Assembly: GCA_964588165.1 (NCBI GenBank)
Contig: CAZPMS010000002.1
Coordinates: 15,951-79,950, forward strand
Direction of reading: 5' to 3'
Source of the DNA: an uncultured Gammaproteobacteria bacterium
GTDB taxonomy: Bacteria; Patescibacteriota; Patescibacteriia; UBA1558; UBA10009
DNA length: 64,000 nucleotides
Below are positions 1,572 to 63,341 of the stretch, piece after piece. The notes below the pieces were generated by a model. It was not told the origin of the DNA. It saw only the letters and a program-made list of their open reading frames with translations, and made no database searches. Numbering within the stretch: the first letter of the stretch is position 1; the number at the start of each line of letters is the position of its first letter. The position numbers were made by a program, and so were the translations under genes.

Positions 1572-2435
1572 TTATTTAATATTTAATTTTTTAAAAGCTG
1601 CATTTAAAATCCCTAAAGCATTTTCGTAGCCGACTATTTTTTTAGCCTCATCTTTATTTACCCATTTAGCGTCTTTTACTTCTGGCTCATTGGTGATTTT
1701 TAATTTGTCATCAGTAGTTTCTATTAAAAAGTAGTAGACAGTTTTAGGAACAGGCCTTTTATTTGGCTCTTTTACTTTTATTTCAATACTATCTAAATAA
1801 CCTAAACTTTTTACATTGTTTACTCCGATTTCTTCTTTAATTTCCCTTAGGGCGGCATTTTCTTTGTCCTCATTTTCTTTTATGTGGCCTTTGGGGAAAG
1901 TCCATTTGTTATAGGCATCTAAAATTAAAGCGAATTTATAATTATTATCCTCTTTTTTAAAAACTACGCCACCGGCAGAAAATTCTTTTGGCGGTTCGGT
2001 TTCAAATTCTTTTTTTTCGCCGGTTTTTTGCATGTCTTTAAAAACACTGCCTAAAACTCCGTTAACAAATTTACCAGAAGATTCACCGCCATAAGTTTTT
2101 GCCAACTCAATAGCTTCATTAATAGCAACTTTTGGAGGAATTTCTTTAGAAAATTTTAATTCAAAAATTCCAATACGCAAAACATTTCTATCTACTGTGG
2201 TAATTTGTTCAATTGGCCACTCCGGAGCATATTTTTTTATCATTTTATCAATTTCGGGAACTTTTTCAGCGATACTTTTAATTAGATTTTTAGAAAAATC
2301 TTGATCATCAAAACCCTGTGCAAATTCATCTCGATTATTCTCTAAAAGTTTTTGTAGGTTTTCTTTTTTTTCATTAAAGTCCCATTGGAAAAGACTTTGT
2401 AAAACTAAAGTTCTGGCTAAATGTCTGTTGGACAT
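1572..2435 (-). CDS. nusB: NusB (transcription antitermination factor) N-terminal domain fused to a C-terminal NUDIX hydrolase domain.
   Basis: N-terminus: LARTLVLQSLFQWDF...DRNVLRIGIFEL...KVAINEAIELAKTYGGESSGKFVNGVLGSV, which is NusB-like. C-terminus: GGVVFKK...GHIKENEDKENAALREIKEEIGV, a Nudix box of the form Gx5Ex7REUxEExGU. Confidence 0.8.
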   Translation of the reverse strand: MSNRHLARTLVLQSLFQWDFNEKKENLQKLLENNRDEFAQGFDDQDFSKNLIKSIAEKVPEIDKMIKKYAPEWPIEQITTVDRNVLRIGIFELKFSKEIPPKVAINEAIELAKTYGGESSGKFVNGVLGSVFKDMQKTGEKKEFETEPPKEFSAGGVVFKKEDNNYKFALILDAYNKWTFPKGHIKENEDKENAALREIKEEIGVNNVKSLGYLDSIEIKVKEPNKRPVPKTVYYFLIETTDDKLKITNEPEVKDAKWVNKDEAKKIVGYENALGILNAAFKKLNIK

Positions 2436-7486: not shown

Positions 7487-7561
7487 TGGTGACCCCACGG
7501 GGAATCGAACCCCGGTTGCCAGGATGAAAACCTGGTGTCCTAACCACTAGACGATAGGGCC
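7487..7561 (-). tRNA. tRNA-Glu (anticodon UUC)
   Basis: Reverse complement: GGCCCTATCGTCTAGTGGTTAGGACACCAGGTTTTCATCCTGGCAACCGGGGTTCGATTCCCCGTGGGGTCACCA. It folds as a cloverleaf with TTC at anticodon positions 34-36 and an encoded CCA. A TTGACA-17-TATCAT promoter lies upstream at about 7585-7615. Confidence 0.85.
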
Positions 7562-10691: not shown

Positions 10692-13223
10692 TTAGTAGTT
10701 GGCGGTGGCTACGAAAGTCAAGGCTGATGTATAAGTTCCGGAATCAGTATTGGAGGCAATATTGGCCAGGAAAAAGACATCATAATCTGTAGTAGCTGTA
10801 GCGCTGGAGGCTGAAGCAACTTGATCAGCAGCCGATTCTCCGTCGTAGGCATAATTGGCCGTATCATAAGGTGAAGAAGCTGTACCGCTACCGCCTGATG
10901 CAGATAATTTAATGCCAAACTGTTCAGAGCCAGCACTTGGAGCGGTTGCGCTTCCACCAATAGCCGTTATTGTATCACCATATGAATTTGTTAAAGTTGG
11001 CCCTTCTATAGTGATAGTATAACCATTGGTGGCGCTACTGGAAGCGGATAGAGTGTGAGCTACGGCCTCTGTGCCGCTGCCATCCAAGTCTCCTGTAGCA
11101 TATCTTGAATTACCGCTGTCTAAAGTTCCAAAACCAATAGTATTATCAGAAATGCTAAAAGTTAAAGTTTGAGGATTTTTTATGGTGGTAGTATTATTAA
11201 TGGCTACAGCAGTGCCAGGTGTTACAGAACCAGTAGCAGTAACTTCAGAAGAAGGGTCAGTTATTTCTATTAAGATAGTTTCATCAGCCGAAGCTCCAGA
11301 TTCAACATCCAAAACTATATAAGCACAAATTTGCGAGGTGCCAACGGTCATAGTGCCGGAAATGGTGGCGTCACTAGAGGAAAAAGAAGCAGCCGTGCCA
11401 AAAAGGCTTTCACCGCCATCGTAATTACACGATGCCGAAGTTTCATAATAAATGTCAACATTAGTTAAGTTTGAATCAGCATTAACCGTTCCGGTCTCAC
11501 TAATAATAATTTCTGTCACATCGGTACTGCCAGTATCTCTAATTAAGGTAAAAGCTCCTCCAATATATATATCTTCAGTAGGGTTTACGGCATAGCCGAT
11601 TTGGTTACCGGTAGTTCCGACAGTAATTTCTCCGCTAGCCTGTAGAGTGGTAGAACTGGGGATGGCTTCAGTTCCGGAATCGATGGTGCCAGTATTAACT
11701 GTTATTTCATTAGGCGGATCAGTAATTTCTATATCAATAACTTCACCAGCAGAAGCTCCGGCACCTACATCTAAAATAATATAAATACAATCTTGATTTG
11801 TGTCTACGTGTAGGTTGCCCGTTACCACAGCATCTTCTGAAGCATCAAAGGCGGCATCAGTGCCAAAAAGAGTTTCACCGCCACCGTAACTGCAAGAACC
11901 AGTTTGCTCATAACGAATATCCAAGTTAGCTAGATTATTTTGGGCGCTAACATCACCAGCTTCACTTACAGTAATTGATGTAATAGTTCCGCTACCGCCA
12001 TCAGCTACAATAGTAAACCAGCCGCCAATATAATTATCAGTAGAATCAACGTTAAGGTTAGCCACTTGATTATCAGCCGCTGTTAAAGTAAAAGAAGGCT
12101 CAGCTACAGTGGTTGAACCGGCAATAGCTACTGCTGTACCTGGAGTCACTGCATCAGTAGCTGTTACTTCTGAAGAAGGATCAGTAATTTCTAATTCAAT
12201 AGTTTGAGAGTCAGAAGCTCCAGGCCCTAAATTATATTCCACATAAGCACAAACTTGAGAAGTGCCTACGCTCATAGAACCGGTAACGGTGGCATTTTCT
12301 GAACCATCAAAAGCATTAGCTGTACCAAAAATCGTTTCATCTCCGTTATAAGTACAGGTAGCAGCCGTTTCATAACGAATTACAATGTCTTTTAAATTGG
12401 TTTGGGCGCTAAAAGTGCCATCAGTTTCGCTCAGAACTATTTGGGTTACAGTATCGCTGCCGGTATTTGTAACAAAAGTAAAAGCCCCGCCGGCGTTATT
12501 TACATTGGAACCGGTATAAACAGTGCCGGTTTGGGTGCCGGTGGTGCCAACAGTAATTTCGGGGCTTATAATATCTATTTGAGCACACCTGTTGGTTGAA
12601 TATTCGTGCACTCCGGTTAAGCTAATATAGTAAGTTGTGCCATATGCAGCATTGCTGGTAACTTGGAAACCCCATTCAAGTTCTGAAAATTCATAAGGGC
12701 TATTATCAATACTGATAGTTTGTGAATTGGCGCTGTTATCAATTTGTGAGCCAGCTACAAAAGAAGCAGTTGCCGGGTCGGTAATCCCGCCATCCAAGGA
12801 TACATTTGTGGTATCGCTGCCGCTGGCAAGTTGAGTATCGTACATACAAAAAGGATGGACACCGCAACTGCCACTAACTGGAATAGCCGTGAAGTCGGTG
12901 GTACAGTCTGAATTGGTGCCGTAAGTAACTCCAAAAGAAACACCATTGGCGTCTTTGGTGCCGGTATTGTGGACTAAATGCCTTACTCTAAGAACCTGCC
13001 CTCTATCTATACTGGTAGTAGCTGTATTTTCAGCAACGCCCCAACTGGCATTAACTTCATTTCCATCATCATTACGCCAACGATATGCTTCTAGATCTAA
13101 ATTTGCTACACCTGAGGCTAAAATAAATTCTAAATTTAAAATGGTAAAAAAACCAATAGCGATAACTATCACTAAAGTTGCTATAATAATTGTTTCTTTA
13201 TTTTTTTTATGATTTGTAAACAT
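10692..13223 (-). CDS. Large Thr/Gly/Ser-rich surface adhesin-like protein with an N-terminal TM anchor and three tandem domain repeats of about 140 aa.
   Basis: Repeats of the form ...DIRYE(T/Q)..(S/T)C.Y.GGE(T/S)(I/L)FGT..AF..SE....TG...V.T.Q.C.Y.....G.GAS......IEITDPSSEVTAT..VTPGTAVAI occur three times. A T8 tract lies at codons 5-8. Confidence 0.6.
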   Translation of the reverse strand: MFTNHKKNKETIIIATLVIVIAIGFFTILNLEFILASGVANLDLEAYRWRNDDGNEVNASWGVAENTATTSIDRGQVLRVRHLVHNTGTKDANGVSFGVTYGTNSDCTTDFTAIPVSGSCGVHPFCMYDTQLASGSDTTNVSLDGGITDPATASFVAGSQIDNSANSQTISIDNSPYEFSELEWGFQVTSNAAYGTTYYISLTGVHEYSTNRCAQIDIISPEITVGTTGTQTGTVYTGSNVNNAGGAFTFVTNTGSDTVTQIVLSETDGTFSAQTNLKDIVIRYETAATCTYNGDETIFGTANAFDGSENATVTGSMSVGTSQVCAYVEYNLGPGASDSQTIELEITDPSSEVTATDAVTPGTAVAIAGSTTVAEPSFTLTAADNQVANLNVDSTDNYIGGWFTIVADGGSGTITSITVSEAGDVSAQNNLANLDIRYEQTGSCSYGGGETLFGTDAAFDASEDAVVTGNLHVDTNQDCIYIILDVGAGASAGEVIDIEITDPPNEITVNTGTIDSGTEAIPSSTTLQASGEITVGTTGNQIGYAVNPTEDIYIGGAFTLIRDTGSTDVTEIIISETGTVNADSNLTNVDIYYETSASCNYDGGESLFGTAASFSSSDATISGTMTVGTSQICAYIVLDVESGASADETILIEITDPSSEVTATGSVTPGTAVAINNTTTIKNPQTLTFSISDNTIGFGTLDSGNSRYATGDLDGSGTEAVAHTLSASSSATNGYTITIEGPTLTNSYGDTITAIGGSATAPSAGSEQFGIKLSASGGSGTASSPYDTANYAYDGESAADQVASASSATATTDYDVFFLANIASNTDSGTYTSALTFVATANY

Positions 13224-14868: not shown

Positions 14869-15975
14869 TTGAATATGAAAATATTAGGTATAGAAACATC
14901 ATGTGATGAAAGCGCAGCTGCGCTGCTTCACGTATCACATAACACATATCACTTATCCAGTAATATTGTTTTATCGCAGATAGATATTCATAAAAAATAT
15001 GGTGGCATTGTGCCAGAGGTGGCAGCACGGAAACATGTTGAGTCAATTATTCCTGTTATTGAAGAATCCATTGGTAAGCAAAAACCGGATTTAATTGCTG
15101 TAACCTATGGTCCTGGTTTAATTACTTCGTTACAGGTTGGTGTGCAAACAGCTAAGACCTTGGCTTACATTTGGCAGGTTCCTTTAGTTGGGGTAAATCA
15201 TTTGGAGGCTCATCTTTGGAGCTTTATTTTGAATGAAGAAAGACGAGTGAAGAATGACGTCACACGTCACACGTCACACGTCAAACAATTTCCGGCAGTT
15301 GGTCTAATCGTATCAGGCGGGCATACGGAAATGGTTTTAGTAAAGGGAATTGGCTCGCCTCGATTCCCGTCCCGACTCGGTCGATCCGAGGCAAACGACG
15401 AAGCGGGCAAGTATAAATTGATTGGCAGAACCAGAGACGATGCAGTAGGCGAAGCTTTTGATAAAGTGTCTAAGATGTTAGAAACTGGTTACCCGGGCGG
15501 ACCGATTATTAGCCACTTTGCCAAAAAAGGCGATCCAGCAAGTATAGATTTTCCTAGACCGATGATAGATAGTGACGATTTTGATTTTTCTTTTTCCGGT
15601 TTAAAAACAGCAGTTAAGTATCATCTTAAACAAATGCCTAAAACCGGCAATTTAAGCCAGGCTTTTATAAATAATGTTTGTGCCAGTTTCCAAAAAGCGG
15701 TAATTGATGTTTTAGTTAGTAAAACCATTAAAGCTACAGAAAAATATAAGGCCAAATCAATTATTTTGGGCGGGGGAGTTAGTGCCAATGAAAATTTAAT
15801 CCATAATCTATTATCCATAACCAAAAAAAGGGAGATAGACTTTTATTATCCAGAATTAAAATTTACCGGTGATAATGCGGCTATGGTGGCTTTGGTAGGC
15901 TTCTTAAATAAAAAATCTGCCAAGAAAAATAATTGGCAGAAGTTGGTGGCCGAAGCAAATCTTAAGTTGGTTTAG
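14869..15975 (+). CDS. tsaD: tRNA N6-adenosine threonylcarbamoyltransferase TsaD (Kae1/YgjD family) carrying two in-frame repeat-encoded insertions.
   Basis: MKILGIETSCDESAAAL...VNHLEAH...SGGHTEMV...DDAVGEAFDKV...GYPGGP. Extra segments ERRVKNDVTRHTSHVKQ and SPRFPSRLGRSEANDEAG are encoded by repeats at 15255-15285 and 15352-15412. Confidence 0.9.
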   Translation: MNMKILGIETSCDESAAALLHVSHNTYHLSSNIVLSQIDIHKKYGGIVPEVAARKHVESIIPVIEESIGKQKPDLIAVTYGPGLITSLQVGVQTAKTLAYIWQVPLVGVNHLEAHLWSFILNEERRVKNDVTRHTSHVKQFPAVGLIVSGGHTEMVLVKGIGSPRFPSRLGRSEANDEAGKYKLIGRTRDDAVGEAFDKVSKMLETGYPGGPIISHFAKKGDPASIDFPRPMIDSDDFDFSFSGLKTAVKYHLKQMPKTGNLSQAFINNVCASFQKAVIDVLVSKTIKATEKYKAKSIILGGGVSANENLIHNLLSITKKREIDFYYPELKFTGDNAAMVALVGFLNKKSAKKNNWQKLVAEANLKLV

Positions 15976-20826: not shown

Positions 20827-21264
20827 ATGAAGGAATATACAACCAACAGTCCTAAAGAAACTAAAAAATTGGCTACAGAAATTGCCAGCCAATTTAAAGG
20901 CGTAAGAGTCATTGGTTTAGTAGGTGAACTTGGTGCTGGGAAAACGGTTTTTGTTCAAGGCTTGGCAGAGGCTATGGGAATCACTGAAGTGGTTAATAGC
21001 CCCACTTTTGTTTTAATGAAGAATTACGAAGTCCATGAGCCAGAATCCACAGTCCATAATCTTGTTCATGTTGATGCTTATCGTTTGAATGATAGCCAGG
21101 AACTTAATGATATTGGTTTAGAAGAATATTTAAATAAAAAAAATACCATTGTAGTAATTGAATGGGCAGATAAAGTTAAAGATTTATTGCCAGTAGATTC
21201 AGTGATGATTGAATTTAAGGAAGAGACAGAAAATAAAAGGGTAATTCAAGTAAAAAAAGCTTGA
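20827..21264 (+). CDS. tsaE: tRNA threonylcarbamoyladenosine biosynthesis ATPase TsaE (YjeE)
   Basis: P-loop GELGAGKT. SPTF motif. VHVDAYRL. Confidence 0.85.
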   Translation: MKEYTTNSPKETKKLATEIASQFKGVRVIGLVGELGAGKTVFVQGLAEAMGITEVVNSPTFVLMKNYEVHEPESTVHNLVHVDAYRLNDSQELNDIGLEEYLNKKNTIVVIEWADKVKDLLPVDSVMIEFKEETENKRVIQVKKA

Positions 21265-40974: not shown

Positions 40975-41508
40975 ATGGGAAAATTATTATTACATGTTTG
41001 CTGCGGACCTTGTGCTATATATGTAGCTAAAAAATTGTCACAAGATTATCGGGTGACCTTGTTTTTTTATAACCCTAATATTCATCCCAAAGAAGAATAT
41101 GATAGACGCTTAGCTACGGTTAAAAAATGGGCAGTCAAAGAAGGTTATAATCTAATTGAGGGCCGGTTTAACAAAGATGATTGGTTTAAAAAAGTTGAAG
41201 GCTTAGAAAATGAACCAGAAGGCGGTGCCAGATGCCCAGTTTGTTTCCAGATGCGTTTAAATGAAGCGGCTAAGCATGCTAAAGAAAAAGATTTTGAAAT
41301 TTTAGCTTCTACCTTAACTATTGGCCGTAATAAAAAAGCGGATATTATTAATCCGATAGGAGCTAATATTGCCAAACAATATGGTTTGGAATTTATAGAA
41401 GAAGACTGGAAAAAGAAAGGCGGCCAACAAGAGGCTTGCCGGCTATCAAATGAGGAAGATTTCTACCGGCAAAATTATTGCGGCTGTAAATTTTCTATTA
41501 GAAAATAA
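40975..41508 (+). CDS. queH: Epoxyqueuosine reductase QueH (DUF208)
   Basis: LLLHVCCGPCA N-terminal motif. C-terminal YCGC. Confidence 0.75.
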   Translation: MGKLLLHVCCGPCAIYVAKKLSQDYRVTLFFYNPNIHPKEEYDRRLATVKKWAVKEGYNLIEGRFNKDDWFKKVEGLENEPEGGARCPVCFQMRLNEAAKHAKEKDFEILASTLTIGRNKKADIINPIGANIAKQYGLEFIEEDWKKKGGQQEACRLSNEEDFYRQNYCGCKFSIRK

Positions 41509-41513
41509 AAGTT

Positions 41514-43490
41514 TTAATTACTAAACCTATTTAGAAATTCTAACATCATGCTACCAAGTGGTTGATAGAAAACATGTTCACCATCTTCCAATTTATAGAA
41601 TTCAGTGGGCACCAAACAACTTTGATGAACCCAATAATCAACACTGGTAACAGGAGAGCTATTAATAAGTGCCTGGACTGATGGAGTGCTAATATCAAGA
41701 TTTTTTTCTACGGACGTGCATTGATGGGCATCGGCGTAATAATTGGAAGCTACTTCTGCTGTAGGCATTTCACCAGGTGCTGGAGATTCTCCTTCGTAAA
41801 GATATATTGAAGTTTGGTCATTAGTGGAATGAAACCGGATAATTGGAATAGCATCTTTTTGGCCGGCAGCTATTGCCGTATCATAAGCCAAGAAATCGCT
41901 ACCTGGTCCGCCACAACCGCCAACGGCCATGGCTATAATATCATTTCTGGTTAAAGCCATATGTTGGGCTTGGGCACAGCCATAAGAAAAGCCGCCAGCA
42001 AAAATTTTATCAATATAAAAGCTGCTTTCTAAATTATTTACTATTATATCTATAAAACTGTCATCATCAGGCATTCTCATTTGGGCATAACAGCCCCTAT
42101 CATCAATCGGTTCTTGCCCTGGGCGGGTATTCCAACAGGTTAAGCCAATTTGAGCATCATTGGTAAAACGATTATCAACCAGTTGGTTATTAGACCGTCC
42201 CATGCCTTGAGGGTAAACAACTATAAAGTTACCTTGCTGGTCAGCAATTTCATCAAATTGATGGCTTAATTGTTGTTGGGCCGTGCCTCCCTTGCCATGA
42301 TACCAGAAAAGAACATCATAATGTAAATTAGGATTAAAGTTTGTTGGTAGGTGAATATAATAAGACCTTTCTACAGTAGTATTGCCTGTAAAATTAGTCA
42401 TTTGGTCGTCAAACTCTATGGTAATAAGGTGGGTACCGGCACTTAAAAGGTTACATTGTCCTTGGTTGCATTCAAAATGTTCTTGGCAGCTTTGAGTTTC
42501 GCCCCATTCCGTACAGCCATCGCCATTATAATCGCCACAGGCTTGATAACCTTCACCAGAGCATTGGGTTTCATTTATACTACATTCATCAAAACATTGT
42601 GGGGGGTCTAAAGTACAGTTGCCATCTTGGCAGCTATATAAACAATTAGATATCTCACCCCATTCCGTACATCCATTACCGTCATAATCGCCACAGGTTT
42701 GATAACCTTCGCCTGAACATTGAGTATCATACAAATTACATTCATTAGTGCAATCAAATCCACCATCTCCCATTGGGTAAGCGATTTCATTTTCTAAAAC
42801 AGTGATAGGCACACCATCAGTATAGATGGAAAGATCAGGAACAACTATAGTGCTACTGAAAAGTCTGTTGGCAATCATGCCAGCATTAGTAACAAGACGT
42901 TTTGTTGAACCTTCAATATAATAGATCTGTGGGCTATGATAACCTTCTTGAACCAGGGTGCCCGTTGGATAGGTAGAAGAACTGGTTAAAGGAGCGCTGG
43001 ATGAATAGTTGGCAGCTAAATAGTTTGGCAATGGAATAATCATGCTTTCCCAGTTGGCACCATATAATAATGCTGCAGTATCTGCTGAATCAATGGCATG
43101 GGTTGCGCCATTGGGGCCGACAGCATAAACTTCCGGAGTGTTAGAAACATTCCAGGTGCCATCGCCTAAAACTTCAACATATTGAATAAGTTTTGTACCT
43201 TGTCTTACAACCACGGTAGAACCCAGGGTATAGCTGACCATTTCATCGGTTGGGACAGTTTTTAAACTATTAAAGTCTGGATACCATGTAACATATTCTC
43301 TCTCATGGTGGAATGGATGTTTAACTAAATTTGAATCCAAATAATAAACTGCCGGAGAGGAATCGGATTTAATTAAATCACCGGCTGTGGCAACATTAGC
43401 TTTAGCTATATTAATGGCAACCATAGTGCCCCAAACAGCAGCAGATGCCACTATTGAGATTAAGAACGATTTTTTTATGAAGTTACTCAT
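41514..43490 (-). CDS. Secreted esterase of the PHB-depolymerase family (alpha/beta hydrolase) with duplicated Cys-rich modules.
   Basis: Signal/anchor present. Two copies of C..EC...(D/E)TQCSGEGYQ(T/A)CGDY(D/N)G(N/D)GCTEWGE. C-terminal FWYHGKGG...GFSYGC (GxSxG). Confidence 0.6.
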   Translation of the reverse strand: MSNFIKKSFLISIVASAAVWGTMVAINIAKANVATAGDLIKSDSSPAVYYLDSNLVKHPFHHEREYVTWYPDFNSLKTVPTDEMVSYTLGSTVVVRQGTKLIQYVEVLGDGTWNVSNTPEVYAVGPNGATHAIDSADTAALLYGANWESMIIPLPNYLAANYSSSAPLTSSSTYPTGTLVQEGYHSPQIYYIEGSTKRLVTNAGMIANRLFSSTIVVPDLSIYTDGVPITVLENEIAYPMGDGGFDCTNECNLYDTQCSGEGYQTCGDYDGNGCTEWGEISNCLYSCQDGNCTLDPPQCFDECSINETQCSGEGYQACGDYNGDGCTEWGETQSCQEHFECNQGQCNLLSAGTHLITIEFDDQMTNFTGNTTVERSYYIHLPTNFNPNLHYDVLFWYHGKGGTAQQQLSHQFDEIADQQGNFIVVYPQGMGRSNNQLVDNRFTNDAQIGLTCWNTRPGQEPIDDRGCYAQMRMPDDDSFIDIIVNNLESSFYIDKIFAGGFSYGCAQAQHMALTRNDIIAMAVGGCGGPGSDFLAYDTAIAAGQKDAIPIIRFHSTNDQTSIYLYEGESPAPGEMPTAEVASNYYADAHQCTSVEKNLDISTPSVQALINSSPVTSVDYWVHQSCLVPTEFYKLEDGEHVFYQPLGSMMLEFLNRFSN

Positions 43491-44631: not shown

Positions 44632-45669
44632 ATGAAGCTTTCAGATTTTGATTACAAATTACCCAAACAGCTTATTGCTCATAAACCGGCCAGCCCGCGT
44701 GATAATTCCAGGCTGATGGTTTTAGATCGCCAATCAAAAAAGATTGAACATAAGCATTTTTTTGATATTGTAGATTATTTAAATAAAGGCGATGTTTTGG
44801 TTTTGAATAATACTAAGGTATTTCCGGCTCGTCTTATCGGCCAGCGTTATAAAACCGGCGGTAAAGTGGAAGTTTTCCTTTTGAAAAAAGTTGGATCGAG
44901 CTCAGCTCGATGGGAAGTGTTAATTGGGAACAGAAGAAAAAAAATTGGTCAAATAATTGAATTTGGCAAAGGTTTGGAATGTGAAATTGTAAAGCAAATT
45001 GATGAATCAGTCTGGCAGGTTAAGTTTAATAAATCGGGCAGTCAACTAGAAAAAGTTATTGATCAAATCGGTGAAGTTCCTACTCCACCTTATATTAAAA
45101 TTAAAGATAAAAAGACTAAAAGATTGAAAGATTTATATCAAACAGTTTATGCAGAGCATCGTGGGTCAGTAGCGGCGCCTACGGCTGGGTTTCATTTTAC
45201 AAAACCTTTAATCAACAAATTAAAAAAGAAGGGCGTTCAATTTGAATATGTTACGCTCCATGTTGGTTTTGGAACTTTTGAAGAAGTTAGAGTGAATAAT
45301 ATTAAAAAGCACAAAATGCATTCAGAATTCGCAAAAATAGACGCAAAGACCACAAAAAATTTAAATAATGCAAAAAAAGAAAGTAGGCGGGTAATATCAG
45401 TCGGCACAACCTCAACCAGAGTTCTTGAAGCTTTTAGTAGTAAAGGAAAAATTAAAGCTCAAAGCAAGTGGGTAGATATTTTTATTTACCCAGGCTATAA
45501 GTTTAAATTTATTGATGGGTTGATAACAAATTTTCATTTGCCCAAATCAAGTTTAATAATGTTAGTAAGTGCTTTAGCTGGTCGTCAACTTATTCTCAAG
45601 GCTTACAAGACTGCTGTCAGTAAAAAGTACCGTTTTTATTCTTTTGGCGACAGTATGTTTATTTTTTAA
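44632..45669 (+). CDS. queA: S-adenosylmethionine:tRNA ribosyltransferase-isomerase QueA. It carries an in-frame family F palindrome at 44895-44913.
   Basis: MKLSDFDYKLPKQLIAHKP...RLMVL. VLNNTKVFPARL. C-terminal TNFHLPKSSL. Confidence 0.85.
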   Translation: MKLSDFDYKLPKQLIAHKPASPRDNSRLMVLDRQSKKIEHKHFFDIVDYLNKGDVLVLNNTKVFPARLIGQRYKTGGKVEVFLLKKVGSSSARWEVLIGNRRKKIGQIIEFGKGLECEIVKQIDESVWQVKFNKSGSQLEKVIDQIGEVPTPPYIKIKDKKTKRLKDLYQTVYAEHRGSVAAPTAGFHFTKPLINKLKKKGVQFEYVTLHVGFGTFEEVRVNNIKKHKMHSEFAKIDAKTTKNLNNAKKESRRVISVGTTSTRVLEAFSSKGKIKAQSKWVDIFIYPGYKFKFIDGLITNFHLPKSSLIMLVSALAGRQLILKAYKTAVSKKYRFYSFGDSMFIF

Positions 45670-51785: not shown

Positions 51786-52358
51786 ATGATCAATAAAACA
51801 CTCCTGGCCAACATTAAGAAAAAAATGGAAACTTATCAAAAAGAACGGAACCAAATTATTGGCGATTCCCGAAGAATCCTGCAGGCTTCTAAAAAAGCTA
51901 TTTTTGCTCTGCATAGAGCAGACAAAAAATCGGCTAAGCAGTTTATGGCCGATGCGGAGAAAGGTTTAGCCCAGCTTAATAAAACCTACAACAAAGGCAA
52001 CCGCTTAAGATTTGAAGGTAGTTTTAAGGCGGCGGTAGAGGAATATGTAGAAGCTAAAATGTTTGCCACTGTTTTAGAAAAAAAGAGTTTATCTGAACTT
52101 AAAATAGAAAATATTGGTCCAGAGGAATATATTGGTGGTTTAGCTGATACAACAGGTGAATTAGTAAGGCAAGCTGTTTTACAGGCAACCAATGGAAATA
52201 CCAAAGAACTCAAACGTTATAAAGAAATAACTGAAGAAATTGTAGGTTTTCTACTTACTTTATATTTAACCGGCCACATGCGTCAGAAATTTGATGAAAC
52301 CAAACGCAATTTGAAACGCCTTGAACAAATTATATACGATATACAGATTAGAAAATAA
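51786..52358 (+). CDS. Translin-family protein
   Basis: EEYIGGLADTTGELVRQAV matches the translin motif (Y.GLAD.TGEL.R). All-helical, about 190 aa. Confidence 0.55.
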   Translation: MINKTLLANIKKKMETYQKERNQIIGDSRRILQASKKAIFALHRADKKSAKQFMADAEKGLAQLNKTYNKGNRLRFEGSFKAAVEEYVEAKMFATVLEKKSLSELKIENIGPEEYIGGLADTTGELVRQAVLQATNGNTKELKRYKEITEEIVGFLLTLYLTGHMRQKFDETKRNLKRLEQIIYDIQIRK

Positions 52359-55125: not shown

Positions 55126-55902
55126 ATGGGTGATAAATTAGTTTTAGATTTAGAAACAAAAAAATCTTTTGAAGAAGTAGGCGGCGACCATAATAAAGAC
55201 AAGCTGGAAGTTTCGGTTTGTGGAATTTATTCTTATGATAAAGATCAATTCAGGTGTTTTAGAGAAGAGGAGTTTAAAGAAATGGGCGAATGGTTAAAGA
55301 ACGCTTCGTTGATAATTGGTTTTAACAGTAAATATTTTGATTTTGCGGTCCTGCAGCCTTATTATAAATTTAAGCTTTCCAAACTGCCTCATTTGGATAT
55401 TTTAGAGGAAGTCACCCACGCTCTAGGGCACAGGCTTAAACTTGAGTCCATTGCCCAGGCAACTTTAGGTGAAGGCAAATCCGGTAGCGGTTTAGATGCT
55501 CTTAAGTATTATAAAAATGGTGATTGGAATACTTTAGAAAAATATTGTTTAGACGATGTTAGAATTACCCGTGATGTTTATGAATACGGTAAAAAACATG
55601 GCCATCTGTGGTACGAAAACAGAGGCAGAAGAGAAACAATACCGGTTAGGTGGAACGGTGATCAGACAATTAAACATCAAATAGTGGATGCTTACAGAAA
55701 CGGCGAACAGGTAGAGATTGAATATTTAAAAACAGAAACCGAAGATAGAACTATAAGAAAAATTGATATTAGGACTATAAAAAATAATCAAGTTCAAGCT
55801 TATTGCCATTTAAAGCAAGCTATTAGAATTTTCAATATAGATAAGGTTATGGATGTTAAATCTGTGGGTCAAGCAGAAAATTGGCAGACAAAGTTGTTTT
55901 AG
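55126..55902 (+). CDS. DEDD-family 3'-5' exonuclease (YprB/RNase_H_2-like)
   Basis: LVLDLETKK Exo I motif. YCLDDV. Confidence 0.55.
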   Translation: MGDKLVLDLETKKSFEEVGGDHNKDKLEVSVCGIYSYDKDQFRCFREEEFKEMGEWLKNASLIIGFNSKYFDFAVLQPYYKFKLSKLPHLDILEEVTHALGHRLKLESIAQATLGEGKSGSGLDALKYYKNGDWNTLEKYCLDDVRITRDVYEYGKKHGHLWYENRGRRETIPVRWNGDQTIKHQIVDAYRNGEQVEIEYLKTETEDRTIRKIDIRTIKNNQVQAYCHLKQAIRIFNIDKVMDVKSVGQAENWQTKLF

Positions 55903-59065: not shown

Positions 59066-59476
59066 TTATTTCACCTTATCTAAAACCGGTTTTATGTTTG
59101 GAGCCAAATCATCCGGCAGTTCATCAACCGGAAACCAGTTCCATTCTTCAATATCTTCTGCCGGTTTTATCTCACCGATTCGTTTAGCTAAATAGTGGAC
59201 TAAGATTATGTAACCGCCATCTTCTTTTTTATGCAAAAATATATCAATTAGTTTGGCAATTTCAATATCTATGCCCATTTCTTCTTTACATTCCCGTTTG
59301 GCAGTATCTTCTAAAGAAGCGTCAAAATCTTCCATTTCTCCGCCACAAAATTGCCATTTAGGATTAGGCTTTTTATCTGTTTTTTTGTGTTTGTTTAATA
59401 AAGTTTGGAGTTTCCCATCACGCTCTTCTATAATAACCGGTCCGGCTGCAATCAGGGAATTTGGTGGTAAGTTCAT
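59066..59476 (-). CDS. NUDIX hydrolase
   Basis: GGEMEDFDASLEDTAKRECKEEMGI Nudix box. Confidence 0.7.
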   Translation of the reverse strand: MNLPPNSLIAAGPVIIEERDGKLQTLLNKHKKTDKKPNPKWQFCGGEMEDFDASLEDTAKRECKEEMGIDIEIAKLIDIFLHKKEDGGYIILVHYLAKRIGEIKPAEDIEEWNWFPVDELPDDLAPNIKPVLDKVK

Positions 59477-59487
59477 ATATTTATTAG

Positions 59488-61119
59488 TTAATCATTTTTA
59501 TTTAATGATTTTACCATATAAGTTTCTTGTAATCTATATCCCAATTTGCGGTAGTAGCCTCTTACGCCAATGCCAGAAATCACAGCTACTTTATTTAATC
59601 CATGTTTTAAAGTTAAGTCTTCAGCAATTTTCATCATGCGTTTGCCAAAACCGGTGTGCTGGACTTTAGCCTGTTTGGATTTAACCGGCACCAACTGCCC
59701 GTAAGTATGGACTTCTCTAACTAAAGAGGCATTTTTTAATTCCGGTAGAGCCGCGGCTAAACCCGCGTCTAAACGGTCGGGGTCGTTTATTCTGAATCTT
59801 AAAAAGGAATAAAGTTTATCACGTTTGGGTGATTCATAAGAAATAAAATATTCTATACCATCAGAAGCTTGATATTTTTCAGTAAACAGTTTGGCTTTTT
59901 TTATATCGTCTAAACTTTCTCTGGTTTCCCGGCAGCGCATGCACTTACATTTTAACTTTTGTTTTTTAAGTTCAGCTTGCAAGTACTGTCGTAAGTTTGT
60001 AATCTTATTTCCAGCTTCTATACTTTCTTTAGGGATATCACGAATTAGTCTGTTTATTCTAACGTAATATGGTACAGCCTGTTTTATTTTTAAAAGTAAG
60101 TTTAAAAGTTGTTTTTCTGAATAAGGTTTATATTTATCCGATTTATACCATTTGTAGAGTGGGGCGAATTTATTAACCACCGTAGGATAGATTTTTATTT
60201 GGTCGGGCTGGAATCGTTGATCAGAAAAAACAGTTTTAAACATTTTTAAATCCTTGGCTGGGGTGGAGCCTGGCAGGTCGGGCATTAAATGGTAGTCAAC
60301 CTTAAAACCGGCTGACTTTAATAGTTTAGTAGCTTTAGCTGTCTGTTCAACGGTATGTCCGCGTTTAACATATTTTAAAATTTTATCATCCAAATGTTGG
60401 ACGCCCATCTGAATTCTGGTACATCCCAGTTCCCTTAGCCTTTTTACTTCAGCTTCATTAATTAAATCTGGCCGGGTTTCTAAAGTCATGCCGATAATTC
60501 TATACTTGGCAGTCTCATTTATTTTTTGAGCCTCTTTTAAAGTTTTAGAAGTTTTGCCTGTCCTGAGCGAAGTCGAAGGGCGATTACATACATCAAAACA
60601 CTTTTTTATAAACCACTCTTGGTATTTATTGTCATAAGCAGACCAAGAACCGCCCAGTACCAACAGCTCAATTTTATCAACTGTATGGCCGTTAGCCTCC
60701 AAGGCTTTAATTCTCATTTTAGTTTGTTTGGCGGGGTCAAAATCCAAGGCTTTGGCCCGCTGGGCGGCCGGTTCATTAGAAAGGTAGCTTTTAGGCATGC
60801 CTGGCTCTAAAGGGCAGTAAACACAGTTGCCGGGGCAGAAAAACGGCTTAGTAAGCACTGTAACGGGAGTTACTCCAGAAAGAGTCCGGGTAATCCTTTT
60901 AATTAAGTACTGCCTTAACTTTTCTACTGTTTTATGGTTAAATTGGTTTAAGGTCTTTTTATCAAGTTTTTTAAAAGCTTCGATTAATTCAGAGTTAGGT
61001 GCTGGCGGAAGCTTATGCTGACCTGATAGCTTTTTCTTTAAGTACAAAAACTCGGCATAATTTTTGGGATCTGCCTTTAAAAGAGATAAAACGATTTCTT
61101 TATTGATAATTTTAGTCAT
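59488..61119 (-). CDS. elp3: Elp3-family radical SAM / GNAT protein (tRNA U34 carboxymethyl-uridine synthase homolog).
   Basis: FFCPGNCVYCP radical-SAM Cys motif. C-terminal GNAT GFGKRMMKIAEDL...VISGIGVRGYYRKLGY. An in-frame family C repeat encodes PSTSLRTG. Confidence 0.8.
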   Translation of the reverse strand: MTKIINKEIVLSLLKADPKNYAEFLYLKKKLSGQHKLPPAPNSELIEAFKKLDKKTLNQFNHKTVEKLRQYLIKRITRTLSGVTPVTVLTKPFFCPGNCVYCPLEPGMPKSYLSNEPAAQRAKALDFDPAKQTKMRIKALEANGHTVDKIELLVLGGSWSAYDNKYQEWFIKKCFDVCNRPSTSLRTGKTSKTLKEAQKINETAKYRIIGMTLETRPDLINEAEVKRLRELGCTRIQMGVQHLDDKILKYVKRGHTVEQTAKATKLLKSAGFKVDYHLMPDLPGSTPAKDLKMFKTVFSDQRFQPDQIKIYPTVVNKFAPLYKWYKSDKYKPYSEKQLLNLLLKIKQAVPYYVRINRLIRDIPKESIEAGNKITNLRQYLQAELKKQKLKCKCMRCRETRESLDDIKKAKLFTEKYQASDGIEYFISYESPKRDKLYSFLRFRINDPDRLDAGLAAALPELKNASLVREVHTYGQLVPVKSKQAKVQHTGFGKRMMKIAEDLTLKHGLNKVAVISGIGVRGYYRKLGYRLQETYMVKSLNKND

Positions 61120-61828
61120 GAATAAATCAGAAAAAGTATTAAATCAGGTTAAAGATGGTTACAATAAAATTGCTGACCATTTTTCCAGCACCCGCCACGC
61201 TCCTTGGCAGGAATTTGAGCTGTTTGCTGATTATATCAAACCTGGCCAAAAAATTCTAGATCTGGCTTGTGGCAACGGTCGGTTGCATAAATATTTTAAG
61301 GATAAGAAACTGGAAGTTGATTATTCTGGTTTGGATAATTCAGAAAATTTAATTGATATCTGCCGTCAAAAATATCCAGAAATATCAGATAAGTTTAAAG
61401 TTGGTGGAATGACTAAGCTGCCGTATCAGGAAAATCAATTTGACGCAGTTATCTGCATTGGCAGTTTTCATCATTTACCAAGCAAGAAATTAAGACTCAA
61501 AACTTTATCAGAAGCTCGTAGGGTTTTAAAACCGGGCGGATATTTGCTTATGACCAATTGGCATTGGCAGCATTGGCCTTTTTGGAAACATTTTTTTAAT
61601 AATTTTTGGCAAAAAAACTCACCATTGGATTTCTTTTTTCCTTGGAAATCTGCTGATGGCCAAAAACAGTGCTTAAGATATTATCATGTATTTACTAAAA
61701 AGGAGTTAAAAAGTTTGCATAAAAAATCAGGTTTAAAAATAATTAAGCTTTTTCCTGATTTGGATACTCATAACAAAAAAGTTTACAAAAGAGGGGTTAA
61801 CATTGTGAGTATTGCTAAAAAAATATAA
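61118..61828 (+). CDS. Trm9-like class I SAM-dependent methyltransferase. The start is probably MNKSEK, internal to the ORF-track call 61064..61828.
   Basis: YNKIADHFSSTRHAPWQEFE (compare Trm9 Y..IA.HFS.TR...W). ILDLACGNGR SAM motif I. DAVICIGSFHHL. Confidence 0.65.
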   Translation: MNKSEKVLNQVKDGYNKIADHFSSTRHAPWQEFELFADYIKPGQKILDLACGNGRLHKYFKDKKLEVDYSGLDNSENLIDICRQKYPEISDKFKVGGMTKLPYQENQFDAVICIGSFHHLPSKKLRLKTLSEARRVLKPGGYLLMTNWHWQHWPFWKHFFNNFWQKNSPLDFFFPWKSADGQKQCLRYYHVFTKKELKSLHKKSGLKIIKLFPDLDTHNKKVYKRGVNIVSIAKKI

Positions 61829-61967: not shown

Positions 61968-63341
61968 TTAGTTAAAGCAGACAGAGTTAAAGTAAGCGTC
62001 TCGTGCGCCGTGTACTACCGGCGATTTGCGAGCATGGAATTCCGCTCCTGCGAGTTTGCTTCCGAAAATATAGATACCGTATTTTGAAAATAGTTTGATG
62101 GTTTTTGTTCCGACCTCTGCATCAGCCACCAGCCGTTCTTCTACCACTTTGTAGACTTGCTGGACTATGCTGCCGGAGCTAATGGTTTCCATGGCATCTT
62201 GCCATTTTTTTTTGCCCATGGTTAAGCCAAGATACATCCGGCGGGCAGAAGAGCTGGCCGGATCTTTTATAACCCACTGTTTGCGTTCAAGTTCAGATAA
62301 GGCAATGTTGCCCTGACCATTTGGGAAATTAACAAAGCCGCTTTCAACCAAGCCAATGGGCACAAAGACATCATCCAATACCTGATAATCGTCTTGCAGA
62401 TACTCCCGGAAGATGGGCGAAAACTGTTCAAGACGGTAGAGGTACATCCAGACCTTGTTACCCAAAAACCTTCTAAAAAGGGGAGAAAGCACGCAGCGGT
62501 TTTGTGGGTAATTTTCTTTGAGAATGTTAAAGGCAGGGTCTCCTTCCTTGATCCTGCTTCTTAAAACTGCGGAAGGTTCACAGTTAAGCTGATCTGGCCC
62601 GATCATTTCGGCATTAAAACCACTGCCGAGCAAACACTTGTAAAGTGTTTGGAAGTTGTGCCAATCACCGTCAGTTGGGCGGGTAACCACTTTAAATGGC
62701 GTGGATTCACCGGGTAGGTTTTTGTCAGAGCACCATTCGTCAACACATTGTTTGATGATACTGGCAAAACTGCTGCCAATATCTGGACATAGTCCAAAGT
62801 CGTCGCCACAAGCGGCCTGGAAATTCATTAAGTCGCCAGCTCCAGCCGGCCGAGTGGAATTGATATCCATAACTTTAAAGCAGTCGCCGACCAATACAGC
62901 ATCTAGCCGGATAAAGGGATGAATAGTTTGGTAGCCGGGATCAGTTAATCCTTTGTCCCACTCTTCCTCAGTACACAGGCTTTTTATCAGCTCTGTATCT
63001 GGTGGATTAAGTTGCCCGGTTTTAGCCAGCCTAAATATTTCCAGTTGGGCGGCTAAAAGTTTGGGCCAGGCCCTGGCAACGGCCTTTAGCTGGCTCAGCT
63101 GTTCAGGGGTAAACTTTACCGGTTCAAGTACTGGTTGAATAACTTCTTCAACCATCTGGCCGGCGCTGGTTTCAATGATCCTAGTTGGTGAAGGATAGGG
63201 ATATCCTTTTCCGGTTAAGGCTTTAAACCTTTCCGGATGGTAGCGATACACCAAGTTGTTTTGCAGCAACTGCTGCAGCATTTCGTTAACCTGACTGTTC
63301 TTCATGGCCGATCTCCTTTTGTTTACTTGGCCTTTTTTCAA
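61968..63341 (-). CDS. Glutathionylspermidine-synthetase-like ATP-grasp protein (YgiC/YjfC family) with elevated GC (about 50%).
   Basis: IHPFIRLDAVLVGDCFKVMDINSTRPAG (compare R.D....G.K.lE.NaDTP). 457 aa. Confidence 0.55.
   Translation of the reverse strand: MKKGQVNKRRSAMKNSQVNEMLQQLLQNNLVYRYHPERFKALTGKGYPYPSPTRIIETSAGQMVEEVIQPVLEPVKFTPEQLSQLKAVARAWPKLLAAQLEIFRLAKTGQLNPPDTELIKSLCTEEEWDKGLTDPGYQTIHPFIRLDAVLVGDCFKVMDINSTRPAGAGDLMNFQAACGDDFGLCPDIGSSFASIIKQCVDEWCSDKNLPGESTPFKVVTRPTDGDWHNFQTLYKCLLGSGFNAEMIGPDQLNCEPSAVLRSRIKEGDPAFNILKENYPQNRCVLSPLFRRFLGNKVWMYLYRLEQFSPIFREYLQDDYQVLDDVFVPIGLVESGFVNFPNGQGNIALSELERKQWVIKDPASSSARRMYLGLTMGKKKWQDAMETISSGSIVQQVYKVVEERLVADAEVGTKTIKLFSKYGIYIFGSKLAGAEFHARKSPVVHGARDAYFNSVCFN

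Follow-up and report, generated by a model that had tools for sequence, protein, structure and literature searches.

An Elp3 and Trm9-like gene pair in a Patescibacteria genome, likely to form a two-enzyme mcm5U34 tRNA modification pathway of archaeal and eukaryotic type

In eukaryotes, two enzymes act in order on the wobble uridine (U34) of tRNA: Elp3, as part of the Elongator complex, makes 5-carboxymethyluridine (cm5U), and Trm9, with its partner Trm112, then adds a methyl ester to give 5-methoxycarbonylmethyluridine (mcm5U). Archaea such as Haloferax volcanii and Sulfolobus solfataricus have a single-subunit Elp3; mcm5U-type chemistry has been assigned to the archaeal Elp3–Trm9 pair (PMC2584109; PMC6144793), and the two genes cluster in S. 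solfataricus (PMC2584109). Both eukaryotic and archaeal Trm9 require Trm112 (PMC4678810; PMC6144793). Among bacteria, a specialist review of 2020 confined Elp3 to Dehalococcoides, in which the enzyme of D. mccartyi (DmcElp3) binds tRNA weakly and has very weak activity (PMC7663514); a paper of 2026 places Elp3 in 'numerous bacteria'. Here we describe a 64-kb stretch of contig CAZPMS010000002.1 (the window) from a bacterium of the Patescibacteria, or Candidate Phyla Radiation (CPR), in which an Elp3 gene stands head-to-head with a gene for a Trm9-like class I S-adenosylmethionine (SAM) methyltransferase. The window falls within the JGI metagenome contig Ga0118721_1000025, of 165,580 bp. We consider it likely that the two predicted enzymes form a two-step mcm5U34 pathway of the archaeal and eukaryotic type. 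The two genes and their junction are as follows.

59488..61119, minus strand: Elp3 homolog of 543 aa, predicted tRNA U34 cm5U synthase; JGI calls the same 543-aa gene.
61118..61828, plus strand: Trm9-like class I SAM methyltransferase of 236 aa, predicted carboxyl methyltransferase converting cm5U34 to mcm5U34.
61117..61120, no strand assigned: CATG junction, read directly from the sequence, in which two divergent start codons share 2 nt and leave no intergenic promoter space.

The sequence-only reading had the two genes divergent and overlapping. Both points hold, with the overlap reduced from 56 nt to 2 nt, all of it within the start codons. The mechanical start of the methyltransferase open reading frame (ORF) is a TTG at 61064; the true start was placed at the ATG at 61118, because the conserved N termini of homologs and the JGI gene call put it there. 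That ATG occupies 61118–61120 and the Elp3 start, read as CAT on the minus strand, 61117–61119. The junction reads AGTCATGAAT.

The pair is not peculiar to this genome. When one genome was scanned for each GTDB species, at least 510 loci with relatives of the methyltransferase were returned, and the best 80 of these were analysed. These are labelled Parcubacteria, Kerfeld-, Magasanik-, Peregrini-, Gracili-, Falkow-, Komeili- and Portnoybacteria and similar metagenome-assembled genomes (MAGs), a few of the labels looking unreliable. A tblastn search places Elp3 directly upstream, on the strand opposite the methyltransferase gene, in 76 of these 80 loci; of the other four, two are contig ends. 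The adjacency persists down to 35% identity of the methyltransferase. The divergent adjacency is not due to chance, since it recurs in 76 of 80 related loci. Clustering of all neighbouring ORFs left only these two genes conserved, the next family occurring in 15 loci, so the module consists of the pair alone.

Start codons were chosen independently for each locus when the gap between them was measured in the 76 loci. The gap from start to start has a median of 2.5 bp and is 50 bp or less in 47 of the 76. The 2-nt overlap (CATG) was seen in 17 loci and a gap of exactly 0 bp (CATATG) in 14, together 31 of 76. Other divergent gene pairs within the window are 105–332 bp apart. We found no sigma-70-like promoter in 60800–61450, and across 33 zero-gap loci neither a fixed −10 hexamer nor a purine-rich Shine–Dalgarno sequence upstream of either ATG; upstream sequence in those loci is T-rich and G-poor. 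With starts placed back to back and overlapping, the expression signals would therefore lie inside the coding sequence of the partner gene, or the mRNAs would be leaderless.

That the minus-strand gene encodes Elp3 had been proposed in the sequence-only reading and was confirmed by a search with the NCBIfam ELP3 model TIGR01211, which scored 536.9 bits (cutoff 350) and aligned residues 53–539 to model positions 36–522 of 522. Pfam returned Radical_SAM (PF04055, 66 bits) and Radical_SAM_C (PF16199), with GNAT below threshold (18.7 bits, cutoff 23.6). The solved structures of Methanocaldococcus infernus Elp3 (MinElp3; 6iaz) and DmcElp3 (5l7j) match residues 69–539 with E values of about 1e-115, and eukaryotic Elp3 structures match with E values of 1e-86 to 1e-95; the alignment to solved structures extends across the lysine acetyltransferase (KAT) domain up to residue 539. 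As judged from its sequence, the ORF is a true Elp3, and NCBI and JGI annotation already gives these Patescibacteria proteins that name. The protein has the following motifs and N-terminal extension.

60814..60837, minus strand: radical-SAM [4Fe-4S] cysteines C95-x3-C99-x2-C102 (CPGNCVYC), read from the sequence and its alignments to solved Elp3 proteins.
59932..59949, minus strand: CxCxxC zinc triad C391, C393 and C396 (CKCMRC), from a regular-expression search; present in 62 of 71 relatives.
59644..59661, minus strand: KAT acetyl-CoA motif QHTGFG, residues 487–492; present in 67 of 71 relatives and aligned to 'QHMGYG' of MinElp3.
60904..61119, minus strand: Elp3 N-terminal extension, residues 1–72, lysine-rich and net basic (15 K/R versus 7 D/E).

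These elements relate the protein to different known enzymes in different ways. Like DmcElp3, it is a bacterial stand-alone Elp3 (385 bits over the full length), and its first 140 residues score 63 bits against that protein. The Fe–S loop CPGNCVYCP, of the form CPGxCxYCP, aligns to DmcElp3 without gaps, whereas MinElp3 has insertions there and a CX4CX2C cluster motif, which the window protein shortens by one residue. The canonical CX3CX2C spacing that results is shared by 68 of the 71 Elp3 ORFs compared from the related loci. Like archaeal Elp3, the window protein (389 bits against MinElp3) is a single subunit with a zinc triad and an N-terminal extension; the triad pairs with 'CRCIRC' of MinElp3 and belongs to a set of cysteines conserved in bacterial and archaeal Elp3 (PMC6367351). 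The basic N-terminal extension is shared with the eukaryotic enzyme too, from which the zinc triad and the CX3CX2C spacing set the window protein apart.

The extension itself is a general feature of the family. In the 120 relatives compared, its length and net charge have medians of 69 aa and +10, and 96% of the extensions are net positive. DmcElp3, by contrast, is without the ~70-aa extension of the window and CPR proteins, its residue 2 aligning to residue 74 of the window Elp3. An extended N terminus is important for substrate recognition in archaeal Elp3 (PMC6367351), and the weak activity of DmcElp3 and its weak binding of tRNA have been linked to the missing extension (PMC6367351; PMC7663514). 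The extension is likely to be a tRNA-binding arm.

Elp3 might instead act mainly as an acetyltransferase of proteins or other substrates, as was once proposed for eukaryotic Elongator, or as a radical-SAM enzyme unrelated to tRNA. A KAT/GNAT domain is indeed present, and the matching PDB entries carry the historical label 'histone acetyltransferase, ELP3 family'. However, the conserved partner gene encodes a homolog of a tRNA-U34 methyltransferase, and we regard a function of this Elp3 away from tRNA as extremely improbable.

The partner had been assigned to the Trm9/ALKBH8 type from its N-terminal motif YNKIADHFSSTRHAPWQEF. The motif is real: it pairs with 'ANTRYKPW' of Yarrowia lipolytica Trm9 (YlTrm9; PDB 5cm2_Z), its arginine falling on the catalytic arginine. 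In a check against hidden Markov models, Methyltransf_11 matched at 75.8 bits and neither Pfam nor NCBIfam returned a Trm9-specific model; the matches in both are generic class I ones, every specific NCBIfam model lying far below its cutoff. Trm9 membership was therefore tested by other routes. A single-sequence search of the PDB (phmmer) placed 5cm2_Z first (E = 2.3e-12, residues 23–214), and a profile of 20 homologs matched almost the whole of Trm9. The profile score is dominated by the SAM-binding core, so we relied on motifs outside it, which are given here with their yeast Trm9 (ScTrm9) equivalents and their counts among 118 family members aligned with YlTrm9 (MAFFT).

61193..61207, plus strand: N-terminal Trm9 signature R26-H-A-P-W30; R26 corresponds to ScTrm9 R29, aligns to YlTrm9 R40 and is present in 118 of 118.
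61469..61474, plus strand: histidine dyad H118-H119, corresponding to ScTrm9 H115/H116; H119 in 117 of 118, H118 in 110 of 118.
61559..61687, plus strand: substrate-pocket residues W148, W176 and R187-Y-Y189-H, corresponding to ScTrm9 W145, W168, R241 and Y243; 117, 114, 115 and 100 of 118.

Alanine mutants of ScTrm9 at R29, D72, H116, W145, W168, R241, Y243 and N271 lose activity or have it strongly lowered, with a weaker effect at H115: R29A keeps about 5% of activity, H116A is inactive, and mutants of W145, W168, R241 and Y243 are inactive or at least 10-fold impaired (PMC4678810). Seven residues essential in that mutagenesis have equivalents conserved in 85–100% of the 118 homologs; D73, the motif II aspartate (ScTrm9 D72), is present in all of them. 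In an alignment of 20 sequences, W30 is invariant, as are D48 and C51-G-N-G-R55 of class I motif I (D-x-G-C-G-N-G-K/R). The histidine dyad does not occur in the other top-scoring PDB methyltransferases. These (1ve3, 3sm3, 5wp5 and 3l8d) match the core only or are without the non-core motifs of Trm9, which is the sole top match aligned over its full length with all of them.

A generic enzyme of the UbiE or SmtA type, acting on a small molecule or another substrate and adjacent to Elp3 only through genome compaction, would be consistent with the generic database matches, which include Ubie_methyltran, and with annotation: NCBI, and JGI in part, call the homologs class I SAM-dependent methyltransferase or UbiE, while JGI names many others 'tRNA (uracil-5-)-methyltransferase TRM9' or ALKBH8. 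Membership of UbiE/MenG proper was rejected, TIGR01934 scoring 68.9 bits, well short of its cutoff (158), and all UbiE/MenG equivalog models falling far below their cutoffs. The family profile scores 85.3 bits on YlTrm9, over the full length, compared with 51.5 on Escherichia coli UbiE, 36.2 on UbiG, 34.9 on BioC and 29.2 on CmoM (formerly SmtA). A small neighbour-joining tree, which has one Trm9 reference, itself a fragment, joins the family to YlTrm9 in a clade with a bootstrap value of 92 and leaves UbiE, CmoM, BioC, UbiG and 3sm3 outside. Grouping with UbiE or SmtA, named in advance as the outcome that would speak against Trm9, was thus not what the profile and tree gave. With the adjacency to Elp3 kept in 76 of 80 genomes and the Trm9-specific motifs missing from the other top PDB methyltransferases, a generic enzyme is highly improbable.

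CmoM was considered in its own right. Like the predicted activity here, it is that of a bacterial class I methyltransferase esterifying a carboxylated U34 side chain, which makes it a functional analogue. Its substrate is, however, uridine 5-oxyacetic acid (cmo5U) supplied by CmoA and CmoB, and it is distant from the family: the profile matches it over the core only, at 29 bits as against 85 for Trm9, and it falls outside the Trm9 clade. Membership of CmoM was rejected.

Several results weigh against assigning the pair to the mcm5U34 pathway. No direct evidence of xcm5U-type nucleosides exists in any bacterium, according to the 2020 review (PMC7663514). Pfam and NCBIfam hold no curated Trm9 model, and the methyltransferase matches generic families there only. 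The PDB search with the family profile puts an uncharacterised Pyrococcus methyltransferase, 1ve3, marginally above Trm9, although 1ve3 matches the SAM-binding core only. Fold searches by themselves do not single out Trm9: with the AlphaFold2 (AF2) model of the methyltransferase (predicted local distance difference test score 91), Foldseek ranked Trm9 second (E = 4.4e-16, TM-score 0.83 normalised to the target). The tree, as noted, leans on a single fragmentary Trm9. For N271, which in ScTrm9 recognises uracil O2/N3, no confident alignment was obtained, the Trm9 fragment ending there and MAFFT placing N271 in a variable loop; the invariant asparagine N228 of the last strand (G-x-N-x3-I-A-x-K in the 20-sequence alignment) is its probable equivalent. 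Finally, a Trm112 partner was sought and not found: none of 30 small window ORFs has a PF03966 (Trm112) domain, and a search with E. coli YcaR of the window and the 80 related loci, translated in all six frames, gave no match (all E >0.6).

The interface that Trm112 would occupy is altered as well. Hydrophobic Trm9 residues buried by Trm112 have charged replacements in the family, V59 being K or R in 84% of members and F78 being D, E or N in 84%. The positions whose N89K/L91R substitution disrupts the yeast complex are both lysine (K92 and K94) in the window protein. Clustering of the neighbouring ORFs of the related loci gave no conserved small gene near the pair. The charged contact patch, together with the failure to find Trm112 in the window or the related loci, suggests that the methyltransferase is a stand-alone enzyme, unlike archaeal Trm9, which binds Trm112 (PMC6144793), and unlike its eukaryotic counterpart.

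The same remodelled surface would also fit a Trm9-lineage enzyme that works with Elp3 but does not yield canonical mcm5U, its target being, for example, a different side chain derived from Elp3, a different position in tRNA or an RNA of another kind. Such an enzyme is the main residual alternative, albeit an unlikely one. The C-terminal loop of the methyltransferase (residues 214–226) is variable and of low confidence in the AF2 model, and the CX3CX2C spacing of Elp3 is unlike that of archaeal and eukaryotic Elp3. In yeast, loss of Trm9 gives 5-carbamoylmethyluridine (ncm5U), an indication that the downstream chemistry is not fully understood (PMC3110198). By contrast, every ScTrm9 residue for which a role in holding the cm5U carboxylate or the uracil ring has been proposed (R29, H115/H116, W145, R241 and Y243) is conserved, which argues for the same substrate as Trm9.

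In the pathway that we favour, which the sequence-only reading had raised as a possibility, the stand-alone Elp3 would bind U34 tRNAs with the basic arm at its N terminus and with its interdomain cleft. The [4Fe-4S]/SAM radical, with KAT-bound acetyl-CoA, would place a carboxymethyl group on C5 to give cm5U34, as membership of the Elp3 family predicts. The Trm9-like enzyme would then methylate the cm5U34 carboxylate from SAM, yielding mcm5U34, a step suggested by the conservation of the active site and by the linkage of the two genes; the enzyme would probably work without a Trm112 partner. If a thiolase acts too, 5-methoxycarbonylmethyl-2-thiouridine (mcm5s2U) would result.

Set beside the known systems, the pair has the two enzyme families of Elongator and Trm9–Trm112, the same predicted order of action and a conserved Trm9 active site. 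It differs from the eukaryotic system in that Elp1, Elp2 and Elp4–6 are not part of it and in its head-to-head genes. With the archaeal system it shares clustering of Elp3 and Trm9, known in at least one archaeon (PMC2584109), but differs in its bacterial host, its Dehalococcoides-type Fe–S loop without archaeal insertions and its overlapping start codons. MnmE–MnmG, which produces 5-carboxymethylaminomethyluridine and 5-aminomethyluridine (cmnm5U/nm5U), has the same role at C5 of U34 in split-codon-box tRNAs (PMC7663514), although it relies on unrelated enzymes and unrelated chemistry. Neither MnmE nor MnmG was recognised in the ORFs of the window (examined partly by Pfam and otherwise by reading the translations) or among neighbouring gene calls, in flanks of up to ~10 kb. 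The sole tRNA gene of the window, tRNA-Glu(UUC) (7487–7561, minus strand), carries U34 and is of a type well known as a substrate of xm5(s2)U modification.

A NUDIX hydrolase gene next to Elp3 had also been pointed out in the sequence-only reading.

59066..59476, minus strand: NUDIX hydrolase of 136 aa (PF00293, 69 bits), 11 nt downstream of Elp3.

The ORF and its closeness to Elp3 on the same strand stand, and because the spacer is only 11 nt, the two genes are probably co-transcribed in the window. As a member of the conserved module the hydrolase was rejected: it adjoins Elp3 in 5 of 81 loci only (the window and four related ones) and is a lineage-specific passenger.

The host is bacterial, as had been supposed: the window (G+C ~36%) encodes TsaD, TsaE, QueA, QueH, a NusB–NUDIX fusion, ribosomal protein L32p and serine hydroxymethyltransferase, and the nearest relatives of both genes of the pair are in MAGs labelled Parcubacteria or Patescibacteria. 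The other tRNA-modification genes, all on the plus strand, are TsaD (14869–15975) and TsaE (20827–21264) for N6-threonylcarbamoyladenosine (t6A), and QueH (40975–41508) and QueA (44632–45669) for queuosine. The NusB fusion is a single ORF (1572–2435, minus strand) joining NusB to a NUDIX hydrolase domain, and the same gene call occurs on another contig (L092). A Translin-family protein is encoded at 51786–52358 (plus strand; PF01997, E = 4e-26). Proteins of the Translin family are typically eukaryotic or archaeal and seldom occur in bacteria; this gene would be another of archaeal/eukaryotic type in the genome.

Other genes in the window are less readily placed. A 457-aa ORF at 61968–63341 (minus strand), convergent with the methyltransferase gene, has no Pfam or NCBIfam match; its region has a G+C content of 42% versus ~36% and adjoins an AstE/AspA-like gene cut off by the end of the window. 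An RNase_H-like/PolB-exonuclease-like domain and a WYL domain are combined in one protein at 55126–55902 (plus strand). Two large repetitive proteins are encoded on the minus strand, at 10692–13223 and 41514–43490: one, of 843 aa, is rich in Thr, Ser and Gly with internal repeats of ~130 aa, and the other, of 658 aa, has repeated Cys-rich 'CSGEGYQxCGDYxGxGCTEWGE' modules.

Both enzyme families and the pathway are already well known, and public pipelines already name Elp3 and, in part, Trm9. Our literature search found nothing linking Elp3 or Trm9 to Patescibacteria or CPR, and nothing linking MnmG to CPR. What stands out is how widely the pair occurs across CPR, that Trm112 may not be needed and that the divergent starts overlap. 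Taken together, these features allow a broader reading, which we put forward tentatively and think somewhat doubtful as a whole: much of Patescibacteria/CPR would use an Elp3–Trm9 route to wobble-uridine modification, possibly replacing MnmE–MnmG, with a Trm9 that acts without Trm112 and an Elp3 that combines a Dehalococcoides-type Fe–S loop with a basic arm of archaeal/eukaryotic style. The two genes would be locked together by their overlapping starts, with leaderless mRNAs or mutually embedded signals and obligatory co-regulation.

As judged from the scan and the best 80 of its loci, an Elp3 with the N-terminal arm is present in at least several hundred Patescibacteria species and nearly always paired with a Trm9-like methyltransferase, which widens the distribution given in the 2020 review. 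The zero-spacer divergent starts offer a clean test case for head-to-head gene expression in compact genomes. With only two proteins, and perhaps no need for Trm112, the pair may also serve as a simple bacterial system in which to reconstitute the medically relevant mcm5U pathway. For the organisms themselves, it predicts that split codon boxes are decoded with a wobble modification of archaeal/eukaryotic type in a major bacterial radiation.

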